Assembly: GCA_934098705.1 (NCBI GenBank)
Contig: CAKOPC010000002.1
Coordinates: 158,457 to 222,456, forward strand
DNA length: 64,000 nucleotides
Direction of reading: 5' to 3'
DNA from: an uncultured Bacilli bacterium
GTDB taxonomy: Bacteria; Bacillota_I; Bacilli_A; RF39; UBA660
Of the stretch, positions 1,001 to 64,000 are shown in pieces; position 1 is the stretch's first letter; every line of letters starts with the position of its first letter. The translations under genes were made by a program, and so were the position numbers. Below the pieces are notes generated by a model that saw nothing but the letters and a program-made list of their open reading frames with translations, was not told the origin of the DNA and ran no database searches.

Positions 1001-1139
1001 AAAACATCCTTCTTTCTTATCTTTTTCATATTTATTTTAACAAAAAAATTTGTTAATTACAAGTAATTTAAAAAAATAGTTTTATGTATAATTTTTAAAT
1101 CATTTTTCATAATAAAAATAGATAAAAAGGAGAAAGTTT

Positions 1140-3104
1140 ATGAAGATTATAAAAAATATATTAAGAGTGTTAGTAATTATATTTTTATTATTTAGTAGTT
1201 TTAATCTTTTTGGCAATATATATGCTAAATTTTCTCCTAAAATAAATATAAAAAGTGCTAATAGTTTTTACATGTATGATAAAGATAAAACTCTTATATA
1301 TCATGGTAGTAGTATTGGTAATAATACTTGGGTTAATTTAGAAGATATGGGAGATTATGCTGTTAAAGCAACTCTTTCAGTTGAAGATAAAGATTTTTTT
1401 AATCATAATGGTTTTAACTATTTAAGAATAATAAAAGCAATTTATGAAAATATAAAACATAGAGAAATAGTTCAAGGTGCCTCAACTATTACTCAGCAAT
1501 ATGCTAAAAACTTATTTTTATCTTTTGATAAAACATGGCAAAGGAAATGGAAAGAAATGTGGCTTACCTTTACTCTTGAGGGCAATTATAATAAAGATGA
1601 AATATTAGAAGGTTATTTAAACACAATAAATTATGGTAATGGCTGTTATGGTATTGCAAGTGCTTCTAAATATTATTTTAATAAAGATGTAAAAGATTTA
1701 AATCTAGCACAAATATCAATACTTGTTGGTATTCCTAATTCTCCAAGTAACTATTCTCCTAATTATAATTATGACTTATCAAAAGAAAGACAGGAAGTTG
1801 TATTAAATAGAATGGTTGATAATGGTTATATAACAGAAAATGAAAAGGATATAGCATATAATACAAAATTAGAGTTTTATAATAAGCATGATACTTATAA
1901 CTTAACAACTCTTTCTTATTATAAAGATGCTGTTATAAAAGAACTTGAAACTATATCAAGTGTACCTGATAATTATATTGAAACAAATGGTCTTAAAATA
2001 TACACAAATCTTGATATGTTAGCGCAAACATCTCTTGAAGATGGTTTAAAGGAAAATAAAAAGGTAAAAAATTCTCAAAGTGCAAAAGTTATGATAAGAA
2101 ATAAAGATGGTGCTATAATCGCTCTTGTTGGAGGTATAAATTATGAAGAATCATCATTTAATAGAGCAACTGATTCTATAAGACAACCTGGTTCTTTAGT
2201 TAAACCGTTTTTATATTATAAAGCTTTAGAGCAAGGTTTTACTGCAAGTAGTAGTTTTGAAAGTGCTAAAACGACTTTTAATTTTAGTGATAAAGATAGT
2301 TATACTCCAACCAACATAAATGGAACATATGCTAATAAAAAAATTACTATGGCCCAAGCATTAGCCTACTCAGACAATATCTATGCAGTTAAAACTCATC
2401 TTTTTTTAGGAGAAGAAAAATTAGTTGAAATTTTAAAAAAATTAAATATTACAACACCTTTAAGCCCTTCCCCATCTCTTGCTCTTGGAACATATGAGGT
2501 AAATATAATTGAACTTGCAAGTGCTTATGCAACTTTAGCAAATGAAGGTATGATGATAAAACCTCATCTAATAAATGAAGTTTATGATATGAATGATAAT
2601 TTATTATATAAATATGAAAATAAAGATGAAGTAAAACTACTTGATGCAAAATTAACCTTTATAATAAGTGAACTTTTAACTGGTACATATGACACTAACT
2701 TAATTGACTATACTTATCCAACCTGCATCAATTTGCTTGATAATATAACTCATAAATACGCCATTAAAAGTGGTAGTACCGATACTGATGCTTGGGTTAT
2801 TGGCTACAACAAAGATTATGTTCTTGCTTCTTGGTCTGGATATGATGACAATAAAAAAATTGAAAATAGTATTGTTTCAAATAATAAAACATCTTGGATA
2901 AAATCAATGGAAATGTACTTAAAAGATAAAAAAGACTCTTGGTATAAAATACCTGAAGGTGTTGTAGGTGTATTAACTGATCCAACAACAGGAGAAGTTG
3001 CAACAGAAGATAGTAAGCATAAAAAAATTCTTTATTATGTAAAAGGTACAGAACCTAATAGTAATAAAGAAATTGATGATTTAATCAAAGATATGGTAAA
3101 CTAA
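1140..3104 (+). CDS. Class A penicillin-binding protein (bifunctional glycosyltransferase/transpeptidase, PBP1A family)
   Basis: It has an N-terminal signal anchor. The GT51 motifs are present: SVEDKDFFNHNGFN, GASTITQQYAKN, RKWKEM and LEGYLN. The transpeptidase motifs are present: SLVK (SxxK), YSDN (SxN) and KSGST (KTG-like). Confidence 0.85.
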   Translation: MKIIKNILRVLVIIFLLFSSFNLFGNIYAKFSPKINIKSANSFYMYDKDKTLIYHGSSIGNNTWVNLEDMGDYAVKATLSVEDKDFFNHNGFNYLRIIKAIYENIKHREIVQGASTITQQYAKNLFLSFDKTWQRKWKEMWLTFTLEGNYNKDEILEGYLNTINYGNGCYGIASASKYYFNKDVKDLNLAQISILVGIPNSPSNYSPNYNYDLSKERQEVVLNRMVDNGYITENEKDIAYNTKLEFYNKHDTYNLTTLSYYKDAVIKELETISSVPDNYIETNGLKIYTNLDMLAQTSLEDGLKENKKVKNSQSAKVMIRNKDGAIIALVGGINYEESSFNRATDSIRQPGSLVKPFLYYKALEQGFTASSSFESAKTTFNFSDKDSYTPTNINGTYANKKITMAQALAYSDNIYAVKTHLFLGEEKLVEILKKLNITTPLSPSPSLALGTYEVNIIELASAYATLANEGMMIKPHLINEVYDMNDNLLYKYENKDEVKLLDAKLTFIISELLTGTYDTNLIDYTYPTCINLLDNITHKYAIKSGSTDTDAWVIGYNKDYVLASWSGYDDNKKIENSIVSNNKTSWIKSMEMYLKDKKDSWYKIPEGVVGVLTDPTTGEVATEDSKHKKILYYVKGTEPNSNKEIDDLIKDMVN

Positions 3105-4168
3105 TAATTAATGTTATTAGTTTTTATTTTATTTAACTCTTTCTCTAACATATTAACAAATATTGATGGTGTTACAATATAGGAGTCAAAACCAAAATCT
3201 CTTAAATAACTTTTTATAATTTTATTAACATCTTGATTAGTAATGTTACAGTTAGATAAAAGTTCTCTACTATTACCATCTCTTGTAAAACATTTATAAT
3301 CAATATTATTATTTGATAAAGCTTTTATTAAGTGTGTTTTACCATATTTTTCTAAAGTATTAAAACATGCATTTAAAAAGACATCTTGTTTATATTTAAA
3401 CATAGCCTCTTCTTTTTTTATATTACTAGGGCTACCTATAATATCATAAATACTTCTATTTTGATTACATGATAAAGCAACTATTTTATATATCTTTTTA
3501 AGTGTTTTATCATCTACTATATTAGCACTATTATTAGCATAATTTTTAAAATCATTAACAGAACTTAAACCTGTTTGTAAAAAACTATGTATAAGTGTTG
3601 CTGTTTCATAATTATATGATTTATTAGCATCATGTGATAATCCTACATTTCCTTCTTTTATAACAAAAGGATTAGTATCTATAGCACCTTCTTTTAAATA
3701 TTTATTATTGTTAACAAATTCTATAACTTTTAAAGCCTCTTCCCTGTTTGATACTCTAATTACTATATCATCACTTCTTACAGTACTTGCTACTTTACTT
3801 TGATGTTTTATATTATTATCATCTAAAAATCTAAATATAGAAACTGCTCCATTATATATATGTTCTTTATCAAGTGGTACATATAGTTTTATTTCAGTGT
3901 CATTGCATGGAAAATAATCTTTACTTTTAAAAAGACAAAACGAACTAGCTCTTTCATTTCTATATGAATACATATTTTTAAATTTTAAATCTAAAAAATC
4001 TTTAAAATAAAAACTAATATCTTCTGGTCTATTAAAATTTGAAATGCCATGACAAAGACGTGAATAAATAAAGTTAGCATCAATACGACCTGGGTTTTCC
4101 ATCATAAATTTCTTTATAACTTGCAAAAAATTATTTATTTTGTCTATATTATTCATAAAATTCCTCAT
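3101..4168 (-). CDS. Hypothetical protein, 355 aa, with no recognisable motifs. It is translationally coupled to pduL.
   Basis: A long ORF with coding-like composition. Its start overlaps the upstream pduL stop by 20 nt. Confidence 0.5.
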   Translation of the reverse strand: MRNFMNNIDKINNFLQVIKKFMMENPGRIDANFIYSRLCHGISNFNRPEDISFYFKDFLDLKFKNMYSYRNERASSFCLFKSKDYFPCNDTEIKLYVPLDKEHIYNGAVSIFRFLDDNNIKHQSKVASTVRSDDIVIRVSNREEALKVIEFVNNNKYLKEGAIDTNPFVIKEGNVGLSHDANKSYNYETATLIHSFLQTGLSSVNDFKNYANNSANIVDDKTLKKIYKIVALSCNQNRSIYDIIGSPSNIKKEEAMFKYKQDVFLNACFNTLEKYGKTHLIKALSNNNIDYKCFTRDGNSRELLSNCNITNQDVNKIIKSYLRDFGFDSYIVTPSIFVNMLEKELNKIKTNNINY

Positions 4169-14676: not shown

Positions 14677-15690
14677 ATGAATAATTTTAAAAAATGGATA
14701 ATTAATAATATTAAAGTTATAATACTTACCATACTATCTATTGTAATTATAACTACATTTATAATGATGCTACTTAATAAACAAAATAATAATATGACTA
14801 AAAATAGCAATAATACAGAATCAAATACAAATGTTAAAGTAAATGAAGATACTTCTAATAATATGGAAAATAAAGCGGATAATAATAGTAATAATGATAA
14901 TAATGATAATGATGATAAACAAGATGAAACAAATAATAATAAACAAAATAATATAAATACTGATTTTAATACCAACAATGACAATAACAAAGGAAACAAT
15001 GAATCAAAAGAAAATATACAAGAATATCCCTCTTACGTTTCTTTTGAACAAGCTGAAGACTTACATTTAACCGTTGGTGATACCTACCAATTAAAACTCA
15101 AAACAGACCCAGTAAATGTAAAAAATAATAATGGTACTTATAGTTCTACTGATGAATCTATAGCAACTGTTGATTCAAATGGTAAAATAACAGCATTAAG
15201 AAATGGTTTTTGCAATATAACATTTACTACAGAAAATGGTTTAAAAGCATCAATATATTTAGGAGTTTTTTATACAATTTTAGGCACAAAAAATTTTAAC
15301 AAAGTAATATATAATCAAAATGGCATAACAATAACGGTCGAGAATTTTATATATGATATGGAAGCAGACTCAAGTCCAATGTATTTTAGAGTAATTAACA
15401 ATAGCGGAAGCACAATTGGAATATTTGTATCAAACAAACCAAACTATGCATCTGCTTCTGATTTTGGGGTTACCATCAATGGAAAGCAAATAAATAACCA
15501 ACAAATGAGCTATGTAATAGTAAGCGACGTTGTAGATGATTCCGCAAAAAATGGCTATATTTCATTTAAACAAGATTATTTAAGAATTAACCAAATAAAA
15601 CAAATAAATACTTTAAGTTTCTACTTAATATTTATCGATGATAAATATACGCAAAAATTCTCTTCAGATTTAATAACAATAGATTTTTAA
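14677..15690 (+). CDS. Membrane-anchored protein with an N/D-rich low-complexity linker and a bacterial Ig-like (Big_2) domain
   Basis: It has an N-terminal transmembrane helix and an N/D/K-rich repeat region. The Big_2 signature is LTVGDTYQLKLKTDPVNV...STDESIATVDSNGKITALRNGFCNITFTTENGLKASIYLGV. Confidence 0.6.
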   Translation: MNNFKKWIINNIKVIILTILSIVIITTFIMMLLNKQNNNMTKNSNNTESNTNVKVNEDTSNNMENKADNNSNNDNNDNDDKQDETNNNKQNNINTDFNTNNDNNKGNNESKENIQEYPSYVSFEQAEDLHLTVGDTYQLKLKTDPVNVKNNNGTYSSTDESIATVDSNGKITALRNGFCNITFTTENGLKASIYLGVFYTILGTKNFNKVIYNQNGITITVENFIYDMEADSSPMYFRVINNSGSTIGIFVSNKPNYASASDFGVTINGKQINNQQMSYVIVSDVVDDSAKNGYISFKQDYLRINQIKQINTLSFYLIFIDDKYTQKFSSDLITIDF

Positions 15691-15717
15691 AAACAAGTTT
15701 ACTACTTGTTTTTTTAT
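15691..15717 (+). terminator. Intrinsic terminator hairpin plus T-tract after the Big_2 gene
   Basis: The hairpin is aaacaagt-ttact-acttgttt (8-bp stem) followed by ttttt, immediately after the stop codon at 15690. Confidence 0.6.
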
Positions 15718-15889
15718 ATTAAAAAAGCCATATTATAACCTTAAAATAAAATTATTAAAAATTTAACAACTTTGAAAATCATAATTATTACAGTACATAA
15801 TATACCAAGTTTGATAATCCAGTATAACTATTTTTAAGATGTCCTAAAAATTGCTTATATAAACAAATTACTTTGATTTTTATTTCAAA

Positions 15890-15935
15890 AAAAGACTACT
15901 GACAAAGCAAAATCTTGTCAATAGCCTGAAAATAG
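15890..15935 (-). terminator. Probable rpoC terminator (imperfect hairpin plus U-tract on the minus strand)
   Basis: The arms gactactgacaa and ttgtcaatagc are complementary with mismatches. On the minus strand they are followed by a T7 run (plus-strand aaaaaaa at 15889-15895). Confidence 0.35.
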
Positions 15936-15944
15936 AAATTAATT

Positions 15945-18900
15945 CTATTCCATAAATTCTTCTTCCAATACTTCCATTGGTTCATCTGTTAAAAATTGTT
16001 TTTCAAGTTCATATGATACATCTCTATATTGTTTAGCCCCTGTTCCTGCTGGAATAAGTTTACCAATAATTACGTTTTCTTTTAATCCTTGTAATGTATC
16101 TACTTTACCTTTTATAGCAGCATCTGTTAATACTCTTGTTGTCTCTTGGAATGATGCAGCTGATAAGAATGATTCAGTTTCAAGAGATGCTTTTGTAATA
16201 CCAAGTAATATTGGTTTTCCTAAAGCTGGTTTTTTACCCTTTAAGATAACTTCCTTATTAGCTTCAGTAAATCTTCTCATACTTATTAATTCTCCAACAA
16301 GAAGTTCTGTATCTCCACCATCAATAATTCTAATTTTAGAAATCATTCTACTTACAACAACTTCAATATGTTTATCAGAAATATCAACACCTTGTGCACG
16401 GTATGCTTTTTGAATTTCTTTTAAGATATATTGTTCTGTTGTAATTGGATCAGTTACAGCAAGTAATTCTTTTGGAGCAATATTACCTTCTGTTAATTTA
16501 TCACCAGGTTCTACCATATCACCTTTACTAACACGAAGTTTTGCACCATAATTTGTAACATGCTCTATTTCTTCTAATTTATTTTTAACATAAATTTTAT
16601 ATTTACTATGATCTTCAACAATTTTTGAAATAATTCCTGCTGTTGTTGCTATTGTTGATTGTCCTTTTGGATTTCTTGCTTCAAATAATTCTTCAACACG
16701 AGGAAGACCTTGAGTGATATCTTCACCACCAGCAACTCCTCCTGTATGGAATGTTCTCATTGTAAGTTGTGTTCCTGGTTCTCCAATAGATTGTGCAGCC
16801 ATAATACCAATAGCTTCTCCTACTTCAACTAAATTACCAGTTGCTAAGTTTCTACCATAACATTTTTGACATACACCATTTACTGTAGAACATGTAAGAA
16901 CACTTCTTATTTCAACTTTAGTAATTCCTGCATTAACAATTTTTTCAGCTAATTTTTCAGTAATCATTTCATTTTTATCGACAATTACTTCTTTAGTTTC
17001 AGGATTAATAATCTTCTTACTTGAATATCTACCAACAATACGGTCATATAATCCTTCAATTACTGTATTATCTTTATCATTTATAAATGTTGAAACAGTA
17101 ACACCAAAATCAGTTCCACAATCTTCTTCTTTAATAATTACATCTTGTGATACATCAACAAGTCTTCTTGTTAAATATCCAGATGATGCAGTATTTAACG
17201 CAGTATCGGCACTACCTTTTCTAGCACTATGTGTAGATAAGAAAAATTCTGATACTGATAATCCCTCTTTAAATGATGAAATAACTGGGATTTCGATTAC
17301 TTTTCCACCTGGTTTAGTCATAAGACCTCTCATACCAGACATTTGAACGAATTGTGAAATTTTACCACGAGCTCCTGAATTCATCATACAAACTATTGGA
17401 TTATCAACAGCTTCATCTGCAATTTTCTTAAGGTCAGTTTGAACCTCATCCTTAGCTTTTTCCCAAACTTTTACAACACTTTCAAATCTTTCTTCATCAG
17501 TTATTAAACCTCTTGCATATTGTTTATTGATTTTATCAACCATCTTTTTAGCTGCTGCAATAATCTCTCCCTTTTCTGGAACAGATATAACATCATCTAT
17601 AGATACTGTTGTACCAGAAATAGTTGAATAATTAAATCCTAAATCTTTTAATCTATCTAGCATAACTGATGTTTCAGTTGTCTTATATAATTTAAATATT
17701 TGAGCTATTATATCTTTTAAAGTCTTAACAGGGAAAGGATTAACTAAAGGCATTTCCTTTATAGCAGCCTTTATATCAGTTCCTTTTGGTAAGAAATACT
17801 TATTAGGAGTTATTGTTGTAATATTTTCTTTTGTAGGTTCATTAATAAATGGAAAACTATCAGGCAAAATTTCATTAAATATAAGTTTACCAACAGTTGT
17901 TACCAAATATTTATCTTTTTGCTCATCTGTAAATATTTTATGGTTAAATGATGAAACTGGTAAAACTATTCTTGTATGAAGTGGAAGATCTCCTCTTTCA
18001 TATTCCATTAATGCTTCATTTGCATTTTTAAATACTCTACCTTCGTTTAACTCATCATGTTTTTCTTTTGTTAAATAATAATTACCAATAACCATATCTT
18101 GTGCTGGTGTAACAACTGGTTCTCCTGATTTTGGATGTAAAATGTTATTTGCACCAAGCATTAAAAGTCTAGCTTCAGCTTGAGCTTCTTCAGATAATGG
18201 TACGTGAACTGCCATTTGGTCTCCATCGAAATCCGCATTAAATGCAGGACAAACAAGTGGATGTAATCTTATAGCTTTACCACCAATAAGTTTAGGTTCA
18301 AATGCTTGAATACCTAATCTATGAAGAGTTGGTGCTCTATTTAACATAACTGGATGTTCTTTAATAACTTCTTCAACAACATCCCAAACTCTTGGATCTT
18401 GATTATCAATTAACTTTTTAGCAGCTTTTATATTATGAGCTATATCTTTTTCAACAAGGCCATGTATAACATGGGGTTTAAATAACTCAAGTGCCATACC
18501 TTTTGGTAAACCACATTGATACATTTTAAGACTTGGTCCAACAACGATAACACTACGTCCTGAATAGTCAACTCTTTTACCAAGTAAATTTTGTCTAAAT
18601 CTACCTTGTTTACCTTTTAACATACTAGAAAGTGATTTTAAAGCACGATTTCCAGCACCAGTTACACTCTTACCACGTCTTCCGTTGTCAAATAAAGCGT
18701 CAACTGCCTCTTGTAACATTCTTTTTTCATTTTGAATGATAATAGTTGGAGCACCAAGTTCAATAAGTCTTTTTAAACGATTATTACGATTTATTACTCT
18801 TCTATATAAATCATTTAAATCACTAGTTGCAAATCTACCACCATCTAACTGAATCATTGGTCTAAGTTCTGGAGGTATAACTGGAATAACATCCATAATC

Positions 18901-19577
18901 ATCCATTCAGGTTTATTACCTGATTTATAAAAAGCATCTAATATATCAAGTCTTTTAAGTAAACTTGCTCTTTTTTGACCTTGAGCATTTTCAAGTTTTG
19001 CTCTTATATCTTCTATTTCTTTACCTAAATCTACTTTTTTAAGTAATTCTTTTATAGCTTCAGCACCCATTCCTACTTTAAAGCCATCGCCGTATTTTTC
19101 ATAATATGCACGATATTCTTTTTCGGATAAAGTTTGCTTATCTTCAAGTGGTGTTATTCCCTTATCAATAACAACATATGATACAAAATATAATACCTCT
19201 TCAAGATCTCTTTGGCTCATATCAAGTACAGTTCCCATACGTGATGGAACACCTTTAAAGAACCAAATATGAGATACTGGAGTAGCAAGCTCAATATGTC
19301 CCATTCTCTCACGTCTAACTTTTGATCTTGTTACTTCTACTCCACATCTATCACATACAATATTTTTATATTTTACTCTTTTATATTTACCACATGCACA
19401 CTCAAAATCTTTAGTAGGACCAAATATTTTTTCACAATATAATCCATCTCTTTCAGGTTTTAGTGTTCTATAATTTATTGTCTCTGGTTTTTTTACTTCT
19501 CCATAAGACCATTCTCTTATTTTATCAGGAGAGGCAATTCCAATTTTTAGAGCTTCAATTTTATTAACATCTATCAT
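15945..19577 (-). CDS. rpoC: DNA-directed RNA polymerase subunit beta-prime
   Basis: The protein is 1210 aa. The motifs [12 protein letters not shown], the zinc-finger cysteines [21 protein letters not shown] and the trigger loop are present. The start overlaps the rpoB stop. Confidence 0.97.
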
Positions 19578-22500
19578 TAGAAATCCTCCTTCTCATAATC
19601 ATCATCAAATTCATCAAAATCATTATCTTCTAAATTTTCTTCGTCTAAACTGGATAAGTTTTCTTCATTTTCCATATCTTCTTCTTGTTCTTTATCCATC
19701 GTATCTTCATTTATTTCTTTAGCAAGTTTACTGATTTCAACATCATCAAGTGATAAATTCATTGTTTCATTTGTTTCTTCTTTTTCTATTTGTTTTAAAT
19801 CTAAAACTTCATTTTTATCATTAATTATTTGGATATCAAGTCCTAAAGCTTGGAATTCCTTAATTAATACTCTAAAGCTTTCTGGAACACCTGCTTGATC
19901 TACTTTTTGTCCTTTAACTAATGCTTCATATACTTTAACACGTCCCACAACATCATCTGATTTTACAGTTAAGATTTCTTGTAATGTATGAGCTGCACCA
20001 TATGCATATAATGCCCAAACTTCCATTTCTCCAAATCTTTGTCCACCAAACTGTGCTTTTCCTCCTAAAGGTTGTTGTGTAACAAGTGAATAAGGTCCAG
20101 TTGCTCTTGCATGCATCTTATCTTCAACCATGTGACATAGTTTAATCATATACATAACTCCAACTGATACACGGTTATCAAAAGGACGTCCTGTTCTACC
20201 ATCATATAAAACAGTCTTTCCATCTGGATCCATCTTTGCTTCTGCCATCATATCTCTTACATCTTGTTCTGTTGCACCATCAAATACTGGTGTTGCAAAA
20301 TGTACGCCTAATTTTTTACCAGCCATACCAAGATGTAACTCTAATACTTGACCTAAGTTCATACGTGATGGAATACCAAGTGGATTTAACATTACATCAA
20401 CTGGAGTACCATCTGGTAAATATGGCATATCTTCTTCAGGTAAAATAAGTGAAATAACACCTTTATTACCATGACGACCAGACATCTTATCTCCAACTTG
20501 AATTTTTCTTTTTTGAACTATATATACACGAATTAATTTAATAACTCCTGCAGCAAGTTCATCACTATCTTTCCTTGTAAAGATCTTAACATCATGTACT
20601 ATACCTTCTCCACCATGTGGAACACGAAGTGATGTATCCCTAACTTCTCTTGTTTTTTCACCAAATATAGCATGAAGTAATTTTTCTTCACTTGTAAGTT
20701 CAGCCATACCTTTTGGTGTTACTTTACCAACTAAAATATCGCCTTCTTTTACTTCAGTACCAATTCTTATAATACCATTTGCATCAAGATTCTTTCTTGC
20801 ATCTTCACTAACATTTGGAATATCTCTTGTAATTTCTTCCGGTCCAAGTTTAGTTTCACGACAAGGCATTTCATAATCTTCAATATGAACTGATGTTAAA
20901 GCATCTTCTTTTACTAATCTTTCATTTAAGATAACAGCATCCTCATAGTTATAACCATGGAACATTGTAAAGGCAACAACTAAGTTTTTACCAAGAGCAA
21001 GCTCTCCATTATTAGTTGATGGTCCATCTGCAATTACTGTATTTCTTAAAACTTTATCTCCAACTCTTACAATAGGTCTATGATGGAAACAAGTATTTTG
21101 GTTAGAAGCCATAAAATCTGATAAATAATATGTATCTTCTCCGCCTTTATTTTTTACAACAATTTTTCTTGCATCAACATATGTTACAACACCATCTGCT
21201 TTAGCAACTATTGTTGAACCAGAATCTCTTGCAGCAATCCATTCAACACCAGTTCCAACATATGGAGCTTCTGTTGTTAAAAGTGGTACTGCTTGACGTT
21301 GCATGTTAGAGCCCATTAAAGCACGAGTTGCATCATCATGTTCCAAGAAAGGAATACAACTTGTTGTAATTGATACAACTTGTTGTGGTGAAACATCTAT
21401 ATAATCAACTTTATCTGGAGTTGTCATAATAGTTTCTCCTCTATAACGAGCAGCAACTTGATCTTGAATTATCTTATTGTTTTCATCTGTTTTAACAGTT
21501 GATTCAGAAATTATTAAGTCAGTTTCTTCATCAGCTCTAAAGTATTTCACTTCATCTGTTATAACACAATTAGTAACCTTACGATAAGGTGTTAAAATAA
21601 ATCCATAATCATCAATTTTAGCATAACTTGCAAGTGCAGTAATAAGTCCAATGTTAGGTCCTTCTGGAGATTCAATAGGACAAATTCTACCATAGTGAGA
21701 TTCATTAACATCTCTAACTTCCATACCAGCTCTATCACGAGATAATCCACCAGGTCCTAATGCTGATAAACGTCTTTTATGAGTAAGTTCTGCAATAGGG
21801 TTTGTTTGATCCATGAATTGTGATAATTGTGATGAACCAAAGAACTCCTTAAGTATTGCAGTAACAGGTCTTATATTAATTAAAGTTTTTGGAGTAACTT
21901 CATCTATTTCCTGAGTTGTCATTCTCTCTCTTATTACTCTTTCCATTCTTGTAACACCAACTCTAAATTGATTTTGTAAAAGTTCTCCAACTTGTCTTAC
22001 TCTTCTGTTTCCTAAATGATCTATTTCATCAAAATTACCAATACCATCAAGTAAATTTAAATAATAAGAACATGCAGCATAAAAATCTGAAATAGTTAAA
22101 CGTTTAGATTCTATTGTATAATCATTACCAATAATTCTAATCTTTTTCTTTTTATTAGATGGATCATATATAGTAATAGTTTGAACTTTATTATAAGAAT
22201 CTAAATCTTCATTTATTTTAGTTTCTTTTAAATTATAACCATTATTAAATACTTCTTTTAACTGTGCTAAAATATCTTTAGTTATTACTGTACCTTTAGC
22301 AAATAAAACTTCTCCATCAACTTTTATATCTTCGGCAAGGGTTTGATTTAAAACTCTTTCTAAAACATTAAGCTTTAAGTTAAATTTATATCTTCCTACC
22401 TTTGCTAAATCATATCTAAATTCATCAAAGAATCTAGTTATAATTTGGTTTTTACTACTATCTAAAGTAGCAGGCTCTCCAGGTCTTAACTTTTCATATA

Positions 22501-24860: not shown

Positions 24861-25040
24861 AAGACACCTCCTTATAAAATATATTTTAATCGTGCCTTTA
24901 TAAAAAGTCTTTGTAAGACACTACAAAGACTTTAATATACTTAATTTTAAAGTCCTCGGTAGGATTTACTTTTACAACCTACTGTCTACGGCACAAATAA
25001 ATTTCAAATGTATTATATAATACTTTTATTAATTTGTAAA
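24861..25040 (-). promoter_or_regulatory. Putative L10 (rplJL) leader / autoregulatory 5-prime UTR
   Basis: A 190-nt untranslated gap lies between rplA and rplJ. It contains a perfect 11-bp hairpin (aagtctttgta-agacac-tacaaagactt at about 24907-24934) and further GC-containing stems (cctcggtaggattt...cctactg). This location carries the L10 leader in Firmicutes. Confidence 0.4.
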
Positions 25041-45542: not shown

Positions 45543-45775
45543 AAAAAAAATTTTCATCCCAAAGGACGAAAATATCGTGGTACCACCTTATTTTATAAGT
45601 ATAACAAAATAACAATGTTAAAACTTATCTCAATCTTTTAACGCAAGATAAACGTATTTACTTACATATCAGTAAATCTGTTCCAAAACCATGTTCAGTT
45701 TTATCTACTACTTATTTACACCGACCATAAGCTCTCTATTAATAAATATAAACCTACTCTTTTCTTCACAACATT
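45543..45775 (-). promoter_or_regulatory. Putative T-box riboswitch leader (specifier probably AUG/Met) ahead of dut-metS
   Basis: The minus strand carries AGAGAG followed by cttATGg (a candidate specifier). Further on is AAGGTGGTACCACGA, which matches the T-box sequence AGGGTGGTACCGCG. Then comes the terminator hairpin ttttcgtcc-tttg-ggatgaaaa plus a T8 run, then the RBS aaggagga and the ATG. Confidence 0.55.
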
Positions 45776-45807
45776 TTTTTAATGCATAAATTATAACATA
45801 TATTTTT

Positions 45808-53166: not shown

Positions 53167-54882
53167 TCACTTTAATTCTATTAATTCATCACCAAATAGA
53201 TCTTTTGCCTCATCTAACATTTCATTAGAATCTAAATTTTTAGATGATTCATCACTTATTTTTTCATCATCTAAATTTTTTTCCTGTTGTATCTCATATT
53301 TTATACCATTTTTTAAATCTTGTATATACTTTTGTTTTAAATCCTTCCACTCGTCTTCTAAAATAAAAGCAATTTTATAATGATGTTTCATGGCATCTTC
53401 AAGTAACTCCTCTATTTTAGATATATTAATTAAAGCATTTTTCAAAATTGAACTATATTTTACAGAAACTATTATGTAGTTGTTAGAAGCAACCTTTAAA
53501 ACTCCATCATTCAAATAAGAGCATACTTTACTATATTTTTCAGTAAAAGAATATTCATTTATAGTAGGCCAATTTAACCTTAATTTTTCTAAAATATTCT
53601 TATCAGCCTCTGCAAAAGCATTATTTATTCTAATTAACCTATTTTCTTCAATAACAGAAGACAATTTTGAAATTTTATCATTTAATTCTTTAGATTCTTC
53701 AAATTTTACCTTACCATCTTCAACATAAATACTTTTTTCCTTTATTAAATTAATAGGTGTTACTAAATCTTCTTTAGTATTTTCTTTTTCTTTTTGTAAA
53801 TTTTCAGGTACAAAATTACCAAAATTTTCCTTTTTTTGATTTTTTTCTAATATTTTTAATAATCCAACTTGTAAAATTATTTTAGGAAAGCTACTATTTT
53901 TCATGTTAATAGAAACATCATTTAATATATCAATAGCATCATATATCACTTTTGCATCTAATATACTATTTTTATTATTTTCTATTGCATCAACTAACAT
54001 ATCTTTTAAAAATATCATTAATTCTTGTGCTAATAAGACAAGATTCTTGCCTTTACTATCTTCATCATCAATTTTATCAAACATTTGTTTGATATTGTCG
54101 TTATTAATGCAATCAACAATTATCTTTAAATCCTCTTGCTTAGTAAGCCCCCTTATCTCATAAAAATCATCTTCAGTTACTTTATTATTACAAGAAATAA
54201 GTTTATCAAGCATATTAATAGCATCTCTTAATCCACCATCACTATATTTTGCAATTAATTCCAATGTTCCACGTGGAACATCTAAATTTTCACGTTCTAC
54301 TATCTCATTTAATTTCTTTACTATATCTTTTTCACTTATTTTTTCAAAATTAAAGCATTGGCATCTTGAAACAATAGTTTCTGGAACTTTATAAAATTCG
54401 GTTGTTGCTAATATAAATATTACATGTTGAGGAGGCTCTTCCAAAGTTTTTAGTAAAGCATTAAACGCTCCTATAGACAACATATGTACCTCATCTATAA
54501 TATAAACTTTATATTTTGAAATTGAAGGCATTAAATCTACTTTTTCTTTTATTTCTCTAATTTCATCAACACCATTATTTGAAGCAGCATCAATTTCAAT
54601 AATATCAGGGTTATTCTTATTATTATAAGCTATACAACTATCACATTTATCACAAGCTACTAAACCAGTTCTATTAGAACAATTAACTAATTTAGCAATT
54701 AATTTGGCTGTAGTAGTCTTACCAGTACCCCTAGGACCTGAAAACAAATAAGCATGAGATATTTTATTATTATTAATTGAATTTTCAAGTATTTTTACTA
54801 TTTTATTTTGTCCCACAACTTCTTCAAATTTTTGTGGTCTATATTTTCTATATAAAGCTAAATAACTCATATTCCCACTCAC
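53167..54882 (-). CDS. dnaX: DNA polymerase III subunits gamma/tau
   Basis: YRPQKFEEVVGQ, GPRGTGKTT (Walker A), the zinc module CDKCDSC and DEVHML are present. Confidence 0.95.
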   Translation of the reverse strand: MSGNMSYLALYRKYRPQKFEEVVGQNKIVKILENSINNNKISHAYLFSGPRGTGKTTTAKLIAKLVNCSNRTGLVACDKCDSCIAYNNKNNPDIIEIDAASNNGVDEIREIKEKVDLMPSISKYKVYIIDEVHMLSIGAFNALLKTLEEPPQHVIFILATTEFYKVPETIVSRCQCFNFEKISEKDIVKKLNEIVERENLDVPRGTLELIAKYSDGGLRDAINMLDKLISCNNKVTEDDFYEIRGLTKQEDLKIIVDCINNDNIKQMFDKIDDEDSKGKNLVLLAQELMIFLKDMLVDAIENNKNSILDAKVIYDAIDILNDVSINMKNSSFPKIILQVGLLKILEKNQKKENFGNFVPENLQKEKENTKEDLVTPINLIKEKSIYVEDGKVKFEESKELNDKISKLSSVIEENRLIRINNAFAEADKNILEKLRLNWPTINEYSFTEKYSKVCSYLNDGVLKVASNNYIIVSVKYSSILKNALINISKIEELLEDAMKHHYKIAFILEDEWKDLKQKYIQDLKNGIKYEIQQEKNLDDEKISDESSKNLDSNEMLDEAKDLFGDELIELK

Positions 54883-54984
54883 TTTCTTAAAATATACATT
54901 AATATTATACCTTATAACCCATTTTATTTAAAGATTTTTGTCATTTTAAAGAAAAATATTTAATAATTTTTGTTAATATCTCAA

Positions 54985-55000
54985 TGTTCCACGTGGAACA
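54985..55000. repeat. parS-type palindrome TGTTCCACGTGGAACA (copy 1)
   Basis: An exact 16-bp palindrome with one symmetric substitution relative to the ParB/Spo0J consensus TGTTTCACGTGAAACA. It sits within the 20-bp perfect palindrome AATGTTCCACGTGGAACATT. Confidence 0.75.
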
Positions 55001-55151
55001 TTATAAAAATAATATAAAAATAACTGAAAATTGATAATTTTAGCCTTTTTTAGCTTAAATTAACATTATTTTTATATTTTATATCAAATTTATAAAGTAT
55101 ATTGCATATAATTTTTTTTATAAACATCACTTTTATTGTTAATAACTCCAA

Positions 55152-55167
55152 TGTTCCACGTGGAACA
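55152..55167. repeat. parS-type palindrome (copy 2)
   Basis: TGTTCCACGTGGAACA, preceded by the conserved flank ttattgttaata. Confidence 0.75.
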
Positions 55168-55253
55168 TTGGGCATTTTTATATTAAATAACCAAAATTAT
55201 TATTTTTTATATTTACAAAATAATTATATTTAAAATATAATATCTTTAAAAAT

Positions 55254-55269
55254 TATTTCCCGGGAAATA
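55254..55269. repeat. Noc-binding-site (NBS) palindrome TATTTCCCGGGAAATA (copy a)
   Basis: An exact match to the published B. subtilis Noc-binding consensus. It sits within the 20-bp palindrome ATTATTTCCCGGGAAATAAT. Confidence 0.7.
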
Positions 55270-55374
55270 ATTTTTTATTTGTTAAATTATAACATTATCG
55301 TTTTAATTTATTAATATATCAAAACTATATTAAATATAGTTTTGATATTGTACTTTTTATTGTTAATAAATCAA

Positions 55375-55390
55375 TGTTCCACGTGAAACA
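55375..55390. repeat. parS site TGTTCCACGTGAAACA (copy 3, variant)
   Basis: Identical to the B. subtilis spo0J-internal parS sequence. Confidence 0.8.
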
Positions 55391-55569
55391 TTAAAATTAA
55401 TTTAAATAATGGTATTTAGAATAACATTTAATTAAATATCAAGACATTATTAAATCATATATATAAATATAGTTTTATTTTTTATAATATAAAATTAATT
55501 ACTAATAAATATGTATAATTTTATAATTAAATTTAAAAATTATATTTTATATTTTGTTAATATTTATAA

Positions 55570-55585
55570 TGTTCCACGTGGAACA
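55570..55585. repeat. parS-type palindrome (copy 4)
   Basis: TGTTCCACGTGGAACA with the flank tttgttaatatttata. Confidence 0.75.
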
Positions 55586-55696
55586 TAGTAATCATTAATT
55601 AAAACCATTCCAATCATAATTAATAAAAAGTAATTAAAAAATATATATTATTACTTTTTATTATAATCTATGTTTTTTTTATTGTTAATATCTTAA

Positions 55697-55712
55697 TGTT
55701 CCACGTGGAACA
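55697..55712. repeat. parS-type palindrome (copy 5)
   Basis: TGTTCCACGTGGAACA. Confidence 0.75.
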
Positions 55713-55825
55713 TTATATATGTTATATATAAAATAGTAAAAAAAATGCACATTTTAATATATTTAATATATAGTAATATATTTATAATTTGTTATATTTA
55801 AATTTGTTAAAAATATTAAAAAAAT

Positions 55826-55841
55826 TATTTCCCGGGAAATA
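55826..55841. repeat. NBS palindrome TATTTCCCGGGAAATA (copy b)
   Basis: An exact NBS consensus with a conserved flank (aaaattatttcccgggaaataattttttattt). Confidence 0.7.
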
Positions 55842-55915
55842 ATTTTTTATTTATTGATTAAAATATATAATTATTTTTATATAAATATTGAAAAATATTA
55901 TTGTTAATAAATCAA

Positions 55916-55931
55916 TGTTCCACGTGGAACA
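55916..55931. repeat. parS-type palindrome (copy 6), abutting or overlapping the tadA stop codon
   Basis: TGTTCCACGTGGAACA. The 20-bp palindrome ends at 55933, which is the tadA stop. Confidence 0.75.
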
Positions 55932-55932
55932 T

Positions 55933-56340
55933 TTACCTTAATTTATCAAAAAAAGTATTTAAAAGCTTACTATAACTGATTTTATCCGCTATTTTATAAT
56001 AATTTATATTGTTTACAAAATTTTTATGATAGTTAGAGTCCAAAATATAATATACTTTAGAAATTCTCGATTCATTTATCGCACCCTCACACATTTTACA
56101 TGGTTTTAACGTTGTATATAATATACAATCACTTAATATCCATGTTTTTAATTTTTTACAAGCCCTTTTTATAGCAATTATTTCAGCATGAGCTATAGAA
56201 ATATTAGTTGAATTTTTCATATTATGAGCTTTTGCAATTACTTTGCCATCTTTTACAATAATTGCACTTACTGGTACATTATTGTTTTTATATGCTTTCT
56301 TTGCTTCCTTAAAAAGAATTTCCTCATACTTATCATTCAT
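55933..56340 (-). CDS. tadA: tRNA-specific adenosine(34) deaminase TadA. The start is reassigned to the internal ATG at 56340; the ORF track extends it to 56460.
   Basis: HAEIIAIKRA and PCKMCEGAI (the CDA zinc motifs H-A-E and PC-x-x-C) are present. MNDKYEEILFKEAKKAY aligns with the TadA N-terminus. The RBS ggtgg lies 7 nt upstream of the ATG at 56340. The first 40 aa of the longer ORF have no homology. Confidence 0.85.
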   Translation of the reverse strand: MNDKYEEILFKEAKKAYKNNNVPVSAIIVKDGKVIAKAHNMKNSTNISIAHAEIIAIKRACKKLKTWILSDCILYTTLKPCKMCEGAINESRISKVYYILDSNYHKNFVNNINYYKIADKISYSKLLNTFFDKLR

Positions 56341-56512
56341 AAATACCACCATTTTTTTAATATTAATAAAAAAGTGCACACACATAGAGGTTATTAAGGC
56401 TGCTACTTTCCAATCCTGACCTATTTCTAACATTTGTGTTGCACATATAAATACTAACAAAAATATTATTACTTTGTCAATAAATATTTATTTTTTTATT
56501 ATTAATATTTAA

Positions 56513-56528
56513 TGTTCCACGTGGAACA
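56513..56528. repeat. parS-type palindrome (copy 7)
   Basis: TGTTCCACGTGGAACA. Confidence 0.75.
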
Positions 56529-56631
56529 TTAATAAAGATGATAAATAATTTTTGCAAATATAGTATAATTTATTTAAAAAAATGCTATTATTATTATTTA
56601 TAATGGTTTTTTACTATTGTTAATAAATCAA

Positions 56632-56647
56632 TGTTCCACGTGGAACA
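56632..56647. repeat. parS-type palindrome (copy 8)
   Basis: TGTTCCACGTGGAACA with the flank ctattgttaataaatc. Confidence 0.75.
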
Positions 56648-56743
56648 TTGTACGTTTTTATATAAAATAACTAAAGTTATCATTTTTTTATATCAATAAA
56701 ATAATTATATTTAAATTTTTAAAATATAATATCTTTCAAAAAT

Positions 56744-56759
56744 TATTTCCCGGGAAATA
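56744..56759. repeat. NBS palindrome TATTTCCCGGGAAATA (copy c)
   Basis: An exact NBS consensus. Its flanks are about 90% identical to those of copy a. Confidence 0.7.
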
Positions 56760-56880
56760 ATTTTTTTATTTATTAATTACATTGTTAATGCTTAAAATTA
56801 TTAATAATTTGATTTATCAATATATAATAACAATATCAAATATATTTTTAATATTGTATTTTTTATTGTTAATAAATCAA

Positions 56881-56896
56881 TGTTCCACGTGGAACA
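56881..56896. repeat. parS-type palindrome (copy 9)
   Basis: TGTTCCACGTGGAACA with the flank ttttattgttaataaatc. Confidence 0.75.
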
Positions 56897-57078
56897 TTGA
56901 AATTAAATTAAATAATGAAGTATAAAAAATAGTTGATTAGATAATAAAATATTAGTAATTGATATATAAACTATTACATTGGTATTTTTTTGTTTATAAT
57001 ATTAAAATTATTGATACTATCACAATTAAATTAAAATATTAGTAAATAATATATTTTAAAATTTGTTAATATTTATAA

Positions 57079-57094
57079 TGTTCCACGTGGAACA
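57079..57094. repeat. parS-type palindrome (copy 10)
   Basis: TGTTCCACGTGGAACA with the flank tttgttaatatttata (the same as copy 4). Confidence 0.75.
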
Positions 57095-57258
57095 TTGACT
57101 AACAATACATATTACTTAATACATATTTCAAATATTAATATCTAAATTAAAAGTATAATAAAATATACATATATATTAATTGTTTATCTTTTACTTTAAA
57201 ATGTTATTATTTTTGTAAAATATTATTAGTTAATGAATAATATTTTACAAAAATGCAA

Positions 57259-57274
57259 TGTTCCACGTGGAACA
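57259..57274. repeat. parS-type palindrome (copy 11), embedded in a 28-bp perfect palindrome that ends at the gyrA stop
   Basis: ATGCAATGTTCCACGTGGAACATTGCAT at 57253..57280. The gyrA stop codon is at 57280..57282. Confidence 0.75.
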
Positions 57275-57279
57275 TTGCA

Positions 57280-59733
57280 TTAATTATTATTTTCTTCAGT
57301 ATTATCAAATACCTCTTCTTCTTCTTTTTCAGTAATAGTAACTGATGTAACAGTTTGATTTTCCTTTAGTGAAATTAATCTAACACCTTGAGTATTTCTC
57401 TTTAATGTAGAAATTTTATTAATATCAAGTCTTATAACAATACCATTATTTGTTGTTATAATTGCATCTTCATCACCATCTATTGATTTAAATGCTACCA
57501 AATGTCCATTTTTATCAGTAATGTTTAATCCTTTAACACCCTTACTACCTCTATGTGTTAAACGATATTCTAAAACATTTGTTCGCTTTCCGTAACCCTT
57601 TTCTGTAATGATTAAAATCATTTTATCTTTATTAACAATTTCAGCTCCTACAACAACTTCATCTTCTTTTATATCAATTCCTTTAACACCAGAAGCACTT
57701 CTACCCATTAAACGAACTTCATCTTCAGTAAATCTTACCATTCTACCATTATTTGAAGCCATTATTACTTCATCAATACCAGAAGTCTTACAAACACTTA
57801 TTAATTCATCATCATCTTTTAAAGTTATAGCTATTTTACCAGTTTTTCTTATTAAATCAAATTCTTCTGTTGGAGTACGTTTTACAAGACCTTTTTTAGT
57901 AAAGAATATTAAACTTAAAGGTTTATCCTCATTTTTATCACTATAATTAATAATTGACCTAATACTTTCACCCTTATCTAACTGTAAAAGATTAATTATA
58001 GGTATTCCCTTAGATTGTCTACTAAATTCTGGAATTTCATAACCCTTAATTCTATAAACTCTACCATAATTACTAAAGAATAAAATATAATCATGTGAAC
58101 TACATGTTATAAGTTGTTCTACATAGTCCTCTTCATTTGTTGTCATACCTTTTATTCCAACACCACCACGGTTTTGTGATTTATAAGTATTTACAAGCAA
58201 ACGTTTTATATATCCCTTACTTGTAAGAGAAATCATTATTTTTTCTTCAGGAATTAATGACTCATCCTCTATATAATCAATAGCTGTCATATCAATATTA
58301 GTACGACGTTCATCTGCATATTTTTCTTTTATTTCAAGTAATTCACTCTTAATTATACCAAGTACCTTTTCATCACTTGCTAATATTGAATTTAATTCAT
58401 CTATTAATTTTAACAATTCTTGTAATTCATTTTCAACTTTATCACGTTCAAGACCTGTTAAACGACGTAATTTCATTTCCAAAATAGCATCAGCTTGAAT
58501 TTCTGTTAAACCAAAATTACTAATTAATCCTTGTTTTGCAATTTCATCAGTTTTTGATTCACGAATAAGTTTAATTACGGCATCAATATGATCAAGTGCT
58601 ATTTTTAAGCCTTCTAAAATATGAACTCTAGCTTGAGCTTTACTTAAATCAAACCTTGTCCTACGAATTATTACTTCTCTTTGGAAATCAATATACTTTG
58701 AGATTATATCCTTTAAACATAAAGTTTTAGGAGTACCATTATCAAGCATTAAGAATATAATTCCATATGTTGTTTGAAAAGCAGTATGCTTATATAATTT
58801 ATTTAAAATAACCTGTGGATTAGCATCTTTTTTCAAAGTAATTGTTATTTTAATACCATTTTTTAAATCACTATGATAATCAGTTATACCATCTATTGTT
58901 TTGTTATGAACTAACTCTGCAACCTTATTTTTTAATTCTGATGTATTAACACCATATGGTACTTCATCTATTATAATATAATGTTTTCCATTTTTTTCCT
59001 CTATTGTAGCTTTACTTCTTATAGTAATACTACCTCTTCCTGTTTCATATGCCTTTTTAATACCACTATTACCTAAAATAGTTGCTCCGGTTGGAAAATC
59101 AGGTCCTTTTATAAACTTCATTAAACCATCTGTATCTATATCAGGATTGTCTATATAAGCTACACAACCATCAATTACTTCACCTAAATTATGAGGTGGT
59201 ATATTAGTTGCCATACCAACTGCTATTCCCATTGTTCCATTTACTAATATATTAGGAAACCTTGATGGTAAAACAGAAGGTTCTTTTTCTGAATCATCAA
59301 AGTTTGGAACAAAATCAACCGTATCCTTATTTATATTTCTTAAAAGTTCAAGTGATATTTTTGATAAACGAGATTCTGTATAACGCATTGCAGCAGCTCC
59401 ATAACCTTCTATATTACCAAAATTACCATGTCCATCAACTAACATATGTCTGTAAGAAAAATCCTGTGCCATTCTTACCATAGCTTCATAAATTGAACTA
59501 TCACCATGTGGATGATATTTACCCATTACATCTCCAACTATTCTTGCACTTTTTTTATGAGGTTTATCAGGTGTATATCCAGATTCATACATAGAATATA
59601 AAATTCTTCTATGTACTGGCTTTAAACCATCTCTTAAATCAGGTAAAGCACGAGCAATGATAACACTCATTGAATAGTCCAAAAATGAATCTTTTACTTC
59701 TTTTACTATATTATTTTTTTCTAAACGATCCAT
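57280..59733 (-). CDS. gyrA: DNA gyrase subunit A
   Basis: The active-site region is AAMRYTE. The QRDR region [16 protein letters not shown], the GyrA-box and an acidic C-terminal tail are present. Confidence 0.97.
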
Positions 59734-62878: not shown

Positions 62879-63346
62879 TTATTCTTCTTTTTTTAGACTT
62901 GTTCTAACATTTAATACAGAATTTAAAAGTGATGCTTTAACCATTTGATTATATATTTGATTATATGGTATTCTTATAATAAATTTTTTACCAGTTTTAA
63001 AAAGTATAAGCGTATTTTTATCCTTTTTTTTAAGTTCTAAAATATTATTAAAAGCAATCCACATATTATTAGATAATCTAGGAGATGTTGTTGGAAAAAA
63101 CGTTATATTATTTCTTTCATCTATTATAATTGGTGTTTTATATATTTTTCCAAGCAAATTTTTACTACCTTCTATCCTCCCATTATAAGAACTACCATAA
63201 AATTTACAACTATCATTAACTATTGTATAAATATCACAGTTTACTCTGTATTCTTTATTATTTTCAATAACTTTTGTCACTGTTTGCTTTAATGGCACTA
63301 AAGCACAAGTATTTTCATTAATCAAATAACCCATAAAATCCCCCAA
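62879..63346 (-). CDS. comK: ComK-family competence transcription factor homolog
   Basis: CKFYGSSYNGRIEGS is close to B. subtilis ComK CRFFGSSYAGRKAGT. KTPIIIDERNNITFFPTTSP is close to KPPIMVDPSNQIFLFPTLSS. IRIPYNQIYNQMVKASLL is close to LPISYNSFENQVYRTAWL. Confidence 0.65.
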   Translation of the reverse strand: MGDFMGYLINENTCALVPLKQTVTKVIENNKEYRVNCDIYTIVNDSCKFYGSSYNGRIEGSKNLLGKIYKTPIIIDERNNITFFPTTSPRLSNNMWIAFNNILELKKKDKNTLILFKTGKKFIIRIPYNQIYNQMVKASLLNSVLNVRTSLKKEE

Positions 63347-63415
63347 TATAAGTAAAAAATTGTAATAAAAAAGTATTACGAAATAATCATAATACTTTAA
63401 TTTGTAAAAATTTGT

Positions 63416-64000
63416 CTAATTATCTTTATTTTTGCCAATTATTTGAATTATTCTTAAAAATAAATTTATATAATCAAGGTATATTTGAAAAGCTGCATAT
63501 ATAGCTCCTTTACTATCACCATACATATAATTCGAATTAGGTAATACATGATTAACATCATACGCTGTAAACATTAGAAATACTATAATTCCTACTATGT
63601 TAATAACAAAGTCTATATTTTGACTTCCAATAAATATATTAACAATAGTTGTTATTATAATTCCTAAAAGTGCAAAGAGTAAATAAATACCCCATTTTGT
63701 TAAATCTCTTTTAGTAAAATAACCATATAATGCAAGTAATAAAAATAATATTGAAGTTATTAAAAATACAAATATTATTGATGACATATTATATAGTAAA
63801 AATATTGATGATAATGTAAATCCTGTTGTAAACGAATAAAGTATATAACATGCATAAGCAAGAAATGTTGGCATCTTAGAAAGCAGAAAATTAAAGACAA
63901 TAACTATTCCTATTTCTAATAATAATATAAACAAAAGTGAAGTACTTGAAAACATTTTTATTATAAGTTCTGGATTTAATGATACACAGTAACCTGTTAA
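63416..64000 (-). CDS. Bax-inhibitor-1/YccA family membrane protein. Partial: the ORF stays open upstream of the annotated Met to the window end.
   Basis: It has multiple transmembrane helices and a basic C-terminus (IIGKNKDN). The frame stays open (LTGYCVSLNPELIIK) from 64000 down to the Met at 63955. Confidence 0.5.
   Translation of the reverse strand, partial: LTGYCVSLNPELIIKMFSSTSLLFILLLEIGIVIVFNFLLSKMPTFLAYACYILYSFTTGFTLSSIFLLYNMSSIIFVFLITSILFLLLALYGYFTKRDLTKWGIYLLFALLGIIITTIVNIFIGSQNIDFVINIVGIIVFLMFTAYDVNHVLPNSNYMYGDSKGAIYAAFQIYLDYINLFLRIIQIIGKNKDN

Follow-up and report, generated by a model that had tools for sequence, protein, structure and literature searches.

A candidate composite centromere-like array of parS and Noc-binding palindromes near the replication origin of an uncultured Bacilli lineage

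Introduction

In an uncultured Bacilli bacterium (GenBank assembly GCA_934098705.1), the DNA between gyrA and dnaX is crowded with 16-bp palindromes, which raises the question of which proteins would use them. The region spans about 3 kb and lies in a stretch of 64,000 nucleotides of contig CAKOPC010000002.1 (positions 158,457 to 222,456), referred to here as the window. A first-pass annotation of the window described the palindromes as parS sites, i.e. as a centromere for the partition protein ParB (Spo0J). The analysis presented here finds two kinds of palindrome, parS and the consensus Noc-binding site (NBS) recognized by the ParB paralogue Noc. Judged from sequence comparison, the gyrA-ffs-tadA-dnaX region is likely to be a composite, origin-proximal and centromere-like array that would offer loading sites to two paralogous ParB-family cytidine triphosphate (CTP) clamps.

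Two palindromes in the gyrA-dnaX region

A mismatch-tolerant search of the whole window located 12 parS sites, comprising 11 exact copies of TGTTCCACGTGGAACA and one single-mismatch form, TGTTCCACGTGAAACA (Table 1). All 12 are confined to positions 54265-57274, and the ~61 kb of the window outside the array hold none. Dinucleotide-preserving shuffles of the window gave an expectation of 0.02 matches, and none of 100 shuffles attained 12. A second 16-bp palindrome, TATTTCCCGGGAAATA, is interleaved among the parS sites in three exact copies (0.02 expected) and was found nowhere else in the window. These three copies share 29-31 bp of identity with one another. The ten exact sites and one variant that the first-pass annotation had counted between 54983 and 57282 were all recovered. 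The second palindrome had escaped that annotation, and its description of the surroundings needs correction on two points. Each of the ten copies was said to sit in a perfect 20-mer, AATGTTCCACGTGGAACATT, which is present nine times in the window. The array was also said to be purely non-coding; a gene for the small signal recognition particle (SRP) RNA lies inside it and a twelfth site falls in the dnaX open reading frame (ORF).

The published consensus sequences are TGTTTCAC-GTGAAACA for parS and TATTTCCC-GGGAAATA for NBS (Jalal et al. 2020, PMC7383237). All 12 sites fit the parS palindrome TGTTNCACGTGAAACA with no or one mismatch, and TATTTCCCGGGAAATA reproduces the published NBS consensus base for base (PMC7383237). 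The common form TGTTCCACGTGGAACA is the same as parS2 and parS3 of Pseudomonas aeruginosa, which are functional perfect palindromes (PMC4368675), and the variant TGTTCCACGTGAAACA is the same as the "optimal B. subtilis parS" (PMC8299390). Because of these identities, doubt over the binding of ParB to the GG/CC form is weak, and the first-pass assignment of the sites to parS can be retained. Three independent metagenome assemblies (L001-L003) carry an identical GyrA and the same 12 parS and three NBS sites; the array is therefore not an assembly artefact.

Table 1. Features of the array (window coordinates) and of the partition locus (coordinates of locus L085, where named)
Feature	Position	Strand	Remarks
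parS 1	54265-54280		exact TGTTCCACGTGGAACA; within dnaX ORF 53167-54882(-), encodes ..LDVPRGTLE..
parS 2	54985-55000		exact; perfect 20-mer
Module A	55100-55620	+	parS-NBS-parS-parS, ~480 bp; aligned to module B as paralogue
parS 3	55152-55167		exact; perfect 20-mer; opens duplicated module A
NBS 1	55254-55269		TATTTCCCGGGAAATA, consensus Noc-binding site
parS 4	55375-55390		variant TGTTCCACGTGAAACA; same letters as B. subtilis optimal parS
parS 5	55570-55585		exact 16-mer; 20-mer imperfect (from 55568, end ..ACATA)
parS 6	55697-55712		exact
NBS 2	55826-55841		exact consensus
parS 7	55916-55931		exact; end 2 bp short of tadA stop codon
tadA	55933-56340	-	135-aa deaminase gene inside array; context only; also called in L001
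ffs (small SRP RNA gene)	56358-56453	-	inside array, between tadA and upstream sites; RF00169, 58.7 bits, gathering score 40, E = 2.5e-10
parS 8	56513-56528		exact
Module B	56580-57130	+	parS-NBS-parS-parS; aligned to module A as paralogue
parS 9	56632-56647		exact; opens duplicated module B
NBS 3	56744-56759		exact consensus
parS 10	56881-56896		exact
parS 11	57079-57094		exact
parS 12	57259-57274		exact; centre of 26-bp perfect palindrome abutting gyrA stop codon; terminator-like hairpin
Noc-like protein gene	L085 17112-18347		411 aa
ParA gene	L085 18458-19249		263 aa
ParB gene	L085 19233-20114		293 aa

In the window species, the array is irregular, rich in parS and split by ffs and tadA. 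Two of its parts can be aligned as paralogous modules, A and B. Between them, identity is seen in 63 of the 64 site columns as compared with 75% of the 450 columns aligned outside the sites, and 44 columns contain gaps. A binomial estimate made for this comparison gives P ~2e-7. Column identities of this kind indicate selection on the sites or their homogenisation.

Palindromes can also arise without being bound by a protein, for example as hairpins of RNA or DNA (intrinsic terminators among them) or as generic dispersed repeats of the repetitive extragenic palindromic (REP) or miniature inverted-repeat transposable element (MITE) type. Some of the evidence would suit such an origin. All eight terminator-like hits in the region are parS hairpins (0.4 expected), one of which abuts the gyrA stop codon, and the flank TTGTTAATA, shared by nine of the 12 sites, is consistent with spread by duplication. 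However, on the coding strand a proper T-tract is missing from most of the hairpins, and the 16-mers equal two protein-binding consensus sequences base for base. The first-pass annotation had itself raised the prospect of a genome-wide repeat, and the motif is absent from the rest of the window and from the 20.6-kb locus L085 of the same species. No copy was found off-locus in ~73 kb of this species, no parS occurs in 1.15 Mb of related genomes, and between species the palindromes are conserved and the flanks are not. Hairpins or mobile repeats are thus a very improbable explanation of the array. An individual site could nevertheless have a second use: at the gyrA end, the parS hairpin forms a 13-pair stem (57252-57281; the terminator tool scored the + strand), and the palindrome of parS 12 may double as a gyrA terminator, the T-run having been read by eye on the gyrA (minus) strand.

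The shared flank, in full (T)TTGTTAATA, lies 4-5 nt upstream of these parS sites on the + strand (54950-57070), and its constant side makes the palindromes polar. It was probably inherited through duplication of the unit, and is not conserved in other species. The motif TTATTGTTAATA is found before nine of the 12 parS sites. Its reading as a promoter element, or as a binding site of a third kind, was rejected because the flanks are unrelated in other species. Matches to sigma-70-like promoters (62 as compared with 44.2 expected, sd 6.4) were too unspecific to interpret in DNA of ~20% GC.

Conservation across the lineage

The lineage was scanned in 80 related genome loci (L004-L083), with at most one mismatch allowed and the array zone defined as the sequence within 3.5 kb downstream of gyrA. 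The array zone (171 kb in total) contains 282 parS and 247 NBS sites, and the remaining 1.148 Mb contain no parS and 16 NBS (~1 per 72 kb), NBS being ~100-fold denser in the array zone than outside it. Among the 49 loci whose sequence continues for 1 kb or more past gyrA, 45 contain both motifs, and an apparent NBS-only array, L018, holds slightly degenerate parS sites. Across the lineage, the sites follow the consensus aATGTTtCACGTGaAACATt (parS) and AAATTATTTCCCGGGAAATAATTT (NBS). Many of the arrays consist of tandem units in which parS and NBS strictly alternate, and the period of the unit is specific to the species, e.g. 127 bp in L047, L062 and L083, 97 bp in L014, 84 bp in L079 and 76 bp in L072. 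A metagenome scan for parS followed by NBS within 12-42 nt gave at least 120 loci; among the matches listed, all but a few are situated between gyrA, tadA and dnaX and have a GC content of 19-35%. A reading of the regular arrays as clustered regularly interspaced short palindromic repeats (CRISPR) was rejected, since the "spacers" are themselves repeated between units.

The evolution of the array is satellite-like. Units are duplicated and homogenised within a species and spacers diverge across species, while the two palindromes stay fixed, with 80-100% conservation.

Some NBS sites of the relatives recur at other positions. A lone NBS lies ~7 kb downstream of gyrA (locus positions ~19100-21300) in nine related species and is absent from the window species; it is probably within or near pth/mfd. 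Further dispersed NBS are found near yidC/jag in three species. A contig of higher GC content from a different lineage (L163, RCNI01008886.1, GC 0.49) contains, at positions 741-4110 and in this order, a noc-like ORF, a 950-bp spacer with four parS and one NBS, parA and parB. The two kinds of site may therefore occur together outside the lineage of the window species as well.

Genomic position and origin

The window has a GC content of ~25%, its local genes are all on the minus strand and its GC skew is negative throughout. Its GyrA is found unchanged in human gut metagenome contigs. Relatives of this GyrA with 74-89% identity come from metagenome-assembled genomes (MAGs) of uncultured Bacilli ("Mycoplasma sp. 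CAG:877", "Clostridium sp. CAG:710", "uncultured Mollicutes", "Candidatus Onthousia"), from the names of which the lineage is presumed to be RF39-type.

The wider gene order was obtained from scaffold_175, the contig on which loci L001 and L085 both lie. One strand carries mnmE, jag, yidC, rnpA and rpmH. The diverging strand carries dnaA, dnaN, a Bax1-I gene, a ComK-like gene, recF, gyrB, gyrA, the first part of the array, ffs-tadA, the second part of the array, dnaX, ybaB and recR. The sign of the GC skew changes at the dnaA/rpmH spacer, where gene orientation diverges too. The array, which begins ~9.7 kb and ends ~12.7 kb from this inferred oriC, is therefore origin-proximal, as the first-pass annotation had expected from the neighbouring gyrase genes. 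A simple scan detected no DnaA-box enrichment at the origin locus, so the origin call rests on GC skew and gene order.

ParA, ParB and the Noc-like protein

Searches with tblastn and phmmer detected no ParB-family gene in the window, nor any less than 10 kb from gyrA in 84 loci (L001-L084), and thus the par genes are not near gyrA. The B. subtilis Spo0J and Noc sequences used as queries are approximate; residue-level conclusions rest instead on alignments to PDB chains. The par locus was reached from the other side of oriC via a cluster member of Jag. A homologue search with a 139-aa MnmE fragment returned short fragments only, which were useless for walking along the contig.

Locus L085 spans 20.6 kb and reaches ~12 kb beyond oriC. 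About 9 kb beyond oriC, its genes are, in order, rsmG, RNase R, a 411-aa protein with ParB_N and HTH_ParB domains, a 263-aa ParA, a 293-aa ParB and DUF951. This is the classic noc-soj-spo0J arrangement, and it supplies the parA and Spo0J-type parB genes that the first-pass annotation had proposed looking for, on the same contig as the array. The noc-like gene stands immediately upstream of parA-parB and near rsmG in L085, L086, L087, L208 and L209, and two species other than that of the window show the noc-like/parA/parB set directly after rsmG. In four species, no parS or NBS was found in or near the par genes. In the closest sister species (L084), rsmG is directly followed by an IS3-family element (15138-16384), and no gene of the ParB family was found in the 4 kb beyond or within 10 kb; the par locus of this species must be elsewhere or further off.

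The two ParB-family proteins can be told apart by their closest structures and by their specificity residues. In phmmer comparisons with PDB chains, the 411-aa protein scored higher against Noc (7NG0/7NFU/7OL9, 213 bits) than against Spo0J (174 bits), and the 293-aa protein scored higher against Spo0J (6SDK, 221 bits) than against Noc (162 bits). Binding specificity has been traced to four positions, which are R173, T179, A184 and G201 in ParB and Q, K, K and R in Noc, the R and G being invariant in ParB (Jalal et al. 2020). The 293-aa protein has R, I, T and G at these positions. The 411-aa protein has Q, K, N and R and so agrees with Noc at three of the four, with both specificity-switching residues of the Noc type and one of the two permissive lysines. 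The CTP-binding motifs GERRxR and ENLQR are kept in both proteins (GERRFR in the 411-aa protein), and therefore clamp nucleation, closure and sliding would be expected of both.

These data bear on whether the array could be a ParB centromere and nothing else, as the first-pass annotation had it. In that case only parS would matter, the CCCGGG palindromes would be incidental, and the array would concentrate ParB and the structural maintenance of chromosomes (SMC) complex by oriC. The excess of parS over NBS in the window species, the presence of ParA and ParB genes, the parS-only arrays of two relatives (L042, L052) and the well-known origin clusters of many parS would all agree with this. Nonetheless, the three NBS are exact 16-mers of the published Noc consensus with long mutual identity, NBS are about as abundant as parS in the arrays of relatives and far above their level outside, and the gene next to parAB encodes a paralogue whose specificity residues are of the Noc type. 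A parS array with predicted ParA and ParB partners is thus supported; its purity is not, and a centromere serving ParB exclusively is improbable.

The 411-aa protein also differs from Bacillus Noc in ways that may matter for its function. Nucleoid occlusion by Noc requires a 10-aa N-terminal amphipathic helix that targets the membrane (PMC8429893). The ATG of the 411-aa protein is preceded, at a distance of two codons, by an in-frame TAA, and in the alignment residue 5 of the protein is paired with Noc 26-28; the protein thus has no N-terminal extension and no membrane-targeting helix. Its linker is long, variable, acidic and proline-rich. Such features are the rule in the lineage. In a sample of 120 homologues (P0255-P0374, 259-580 aa), the residues Q-K-N-R are found in 116, GERR(F/Y)R in all 120 and a start of MNL(E/D) in 119. 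Of the 117 homologues with 300 aa or more, 87 have a short motif, NIFxxLR, in the linker; full-length members are 315-580 aa. Binding to the membrane or to a partner could have been relocated to this motif.

A conventional Noc system might alternatively lie merely beside the parS sites, with Noc and ParB acting independently, the former in occlusion or in control of initiation as in Staphylococcus aureus, and with both types of site tolerated or favoured near oriC. The 16 dispersed NBS of the relatives have a density close to that of B. subtilis, which would fit a system of this kind. Known NBS are moreover enriched in origin-proximal DNA, and Noc of S. aureus spreads over 8-10 kb and restrains initiation (PMC5540599). 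Independent placement, however, would not be expected to produce strict alternation of parS and NBS in one tandem unit in many species with differing periods. All 120 homologues lack the N-terminal membrane-targeting sequence needed by Bacillus Noc, and published descriptions explicitly contrast the genomic distributions of parS and NBS (PMC7383237). Two systems that share an address by coincidence are accordingly judged unlikely.

Weight of the evidence

Several observations speak against a composite array or narrow the ground on which it stands. At position 184, the Noc-like protein has N, not K; in a published mutational scan, approximately 91% of the NBS-specific variants had K or R at position 179 or position 184 but not at both. 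The protein scores 300.8 bits with TIGR04285 (nucleoid_noc), just below the cut-off of 315, and its ParB paralogue scores 237.7. Besides the parS-only loci L042 and L052, NBS alone are found at L049 and L078. The parS:NBS ratio of the window species is 12:3, and the closest sister species carries separate, adjacent blocks of parS and NBS; strict interleaving is therefore not obligatory. The restriction of the sites to the array was seen over the 64-kb window and the 20.6-kb L085 in this species and over 1.15 Mb of origin-proximal DNA in relatives. Of the 80 related contigs, 31 end less than 1 kb after gyrA, which makes the site counts from MAGs uncertain lower bounds. Lastly, the 16 NBS outside the arrays of relatives make it probable that the Noc-like protein has some dispersed targets too, and a conventional role in nucleoid occlusion may coexist with one at the array.

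A composite array nevertheless remains the preferred reading, and its working can be sketched. The 12 parS sites would be bound by the Spo0J-type ParB, which together with ParA would form a partition complex that segregates the origin region. The three NBS would be the targets of the Noc-like paralogue, the gene for which immediately precedes parA-parB. Each protein would nucleate at its own sites, close into a clamp and slide onto the same few kilobases, and the outcome would be one mixed nucleoprotein complex ~10-13 kb from oriC. Within this complex, the Noc-like protein might couple the origin region to the control of division or initiation, or might shape or limit the ParB complex. The missing membrane helix, the long variable linker and the sharing of repeat units between NBS and parS argue for a centromere-associated role of the Noc-like protein. 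Membrane-tethering, dispersed nucleoid occlusion of the classic type is probably not its sole role. If Noc spread from the array over 8-10 kb, as reported for S. aureus, it would nearly reach oriC.

A more far-reaching proposal can be offered tentatively and is rather doubtful as a whole. Noc of this lineage would be a centromere protein instead of, or besides, a dispersed nucleoid-occlusion factor. Satellite-like units with one parS and one NBS each would co-load two orthogonal clamps onto 1-3 kb of DNA, and it would be the mixed ParB/Noc complex that functions as a unit and links origin segregation with the control of division or initiation.

Comparison with known systems

The array has much in common with chromosomal ParABS systems, e.g. 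Spo0J-parS of B. subtilis and the cluster of four parS in P. aeruginosa. The 16-bp palindrome is the same and is origin-proximal, and the ParB is of the Spo0J type (R and G residues, GERRxR) with an adjacent ParA gene. It differs in being much denser, with 12 sites in 3 kb, and in being almost entirely intergenic and built of diverged tandem modules. In addition, no parS lies in or near parB, and the sites of a second paralogue are interleaved. The number of sites is less unusual than the first-pass annotation claimed, dense origin-proximal clusters being already known: Streptomyces coelicolor and Listeria innocua have 20-23 parS sites in their origin clusters (PMC7333895).

Similarly, the NBS component resembles Noc-NBS of B. 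subtilis and S. aureus in its identical 16-bp consensus and in the position of the paralogue upstream of parA-parB, as well as in its residues of the Q173, K179 and R201 type, its CTP-binding motifs and its Noc-like C-terminal domain. The chromosome of B. subtilis has ~70 NBS scattered around it, whereas in the origin-proximal DNA covered here NBS are clustered in arrays and alternate with parS. For Noc of S. aureus, 41 loci have been mapped (PMC5540599). The protein departs from Bacillus Noc in having no 10-aa amphipathic helix, a variable linker of 100-350 aa with NIFxxLR, N at position 184 and an NCBIfam score below the cut-off.

A further comparison can be made with sopC of the F plasmid, where tandem 43-bp repeats each carry a SopB site. 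Both consist of tandem, near-identical units with a palindromic site for a ParB-family protein in largely non-coding DNA. Unlike sopC, the array is chromosomal, has two types of site for two paralogues, and in the window species is made of diverged units interrupted by tadA and the SRP RNA gene.

No description of clustered NBS, of NBS alternating with parS or of a Noc subfamily without the helix was found in a full-text search that included the exact sites and covered few of the subscription journals. As origin clusters of multiple parS and Noc-NBS are known already, the array is rated as a variant and not as a categorically new system.

Other features of the region

The SRP RNA gene just upstream of tadA is of the short, 4.5S type, which is notable in a genome of the Bacilli lineage; the SRP RNA of Bacillus is of the long form. 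The only other Rfam matches in the window at the gathering score are a T-box leader at 45559-45778 (-) and an L10 leader at 24892-25009 (-). Near the origin, genes for a Bax1-I family membrane protein and a ComK-like protein lie between dnaN and recF (window 62879-63955; L001 5671-6855), which is an unusual order for an origin region. A look-up of the last ORF of the window (63416-63955) returned no record.

Significance

Divergence of a duplicated DNA-binding pair in both specificity and genomic distribution is usually illustrated by ParB-parS and Noc-NBS, with parS clustered at the origin and NBS dispersed. The lineage described here, which comprises abundant bacteria of the gut, the rumen and the termite gut, combines both types of site in one repeat unit with a Noc that has no membrane anchor. 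The repeat breaks short-read assemblies at gyrA in ~40% of related MAG contigs, and the array is therefore under-represented in genome catalogues. Under the more far-reaching proposal above, and as noc arose from duplication of parB, the interleaved arrays might even be a relic of a time when the new paralogue still worked at the centromere. If the predicted binding is real, the lineage would allow the loading, sliding and collision of two orthogonal CTP clamps on shared DNA to be studied in a natural setting. It would also provide a test of whether Noc is able to work when the membrane helix is missing, and an example of a bacterial centromere that evolves as a satellite array.

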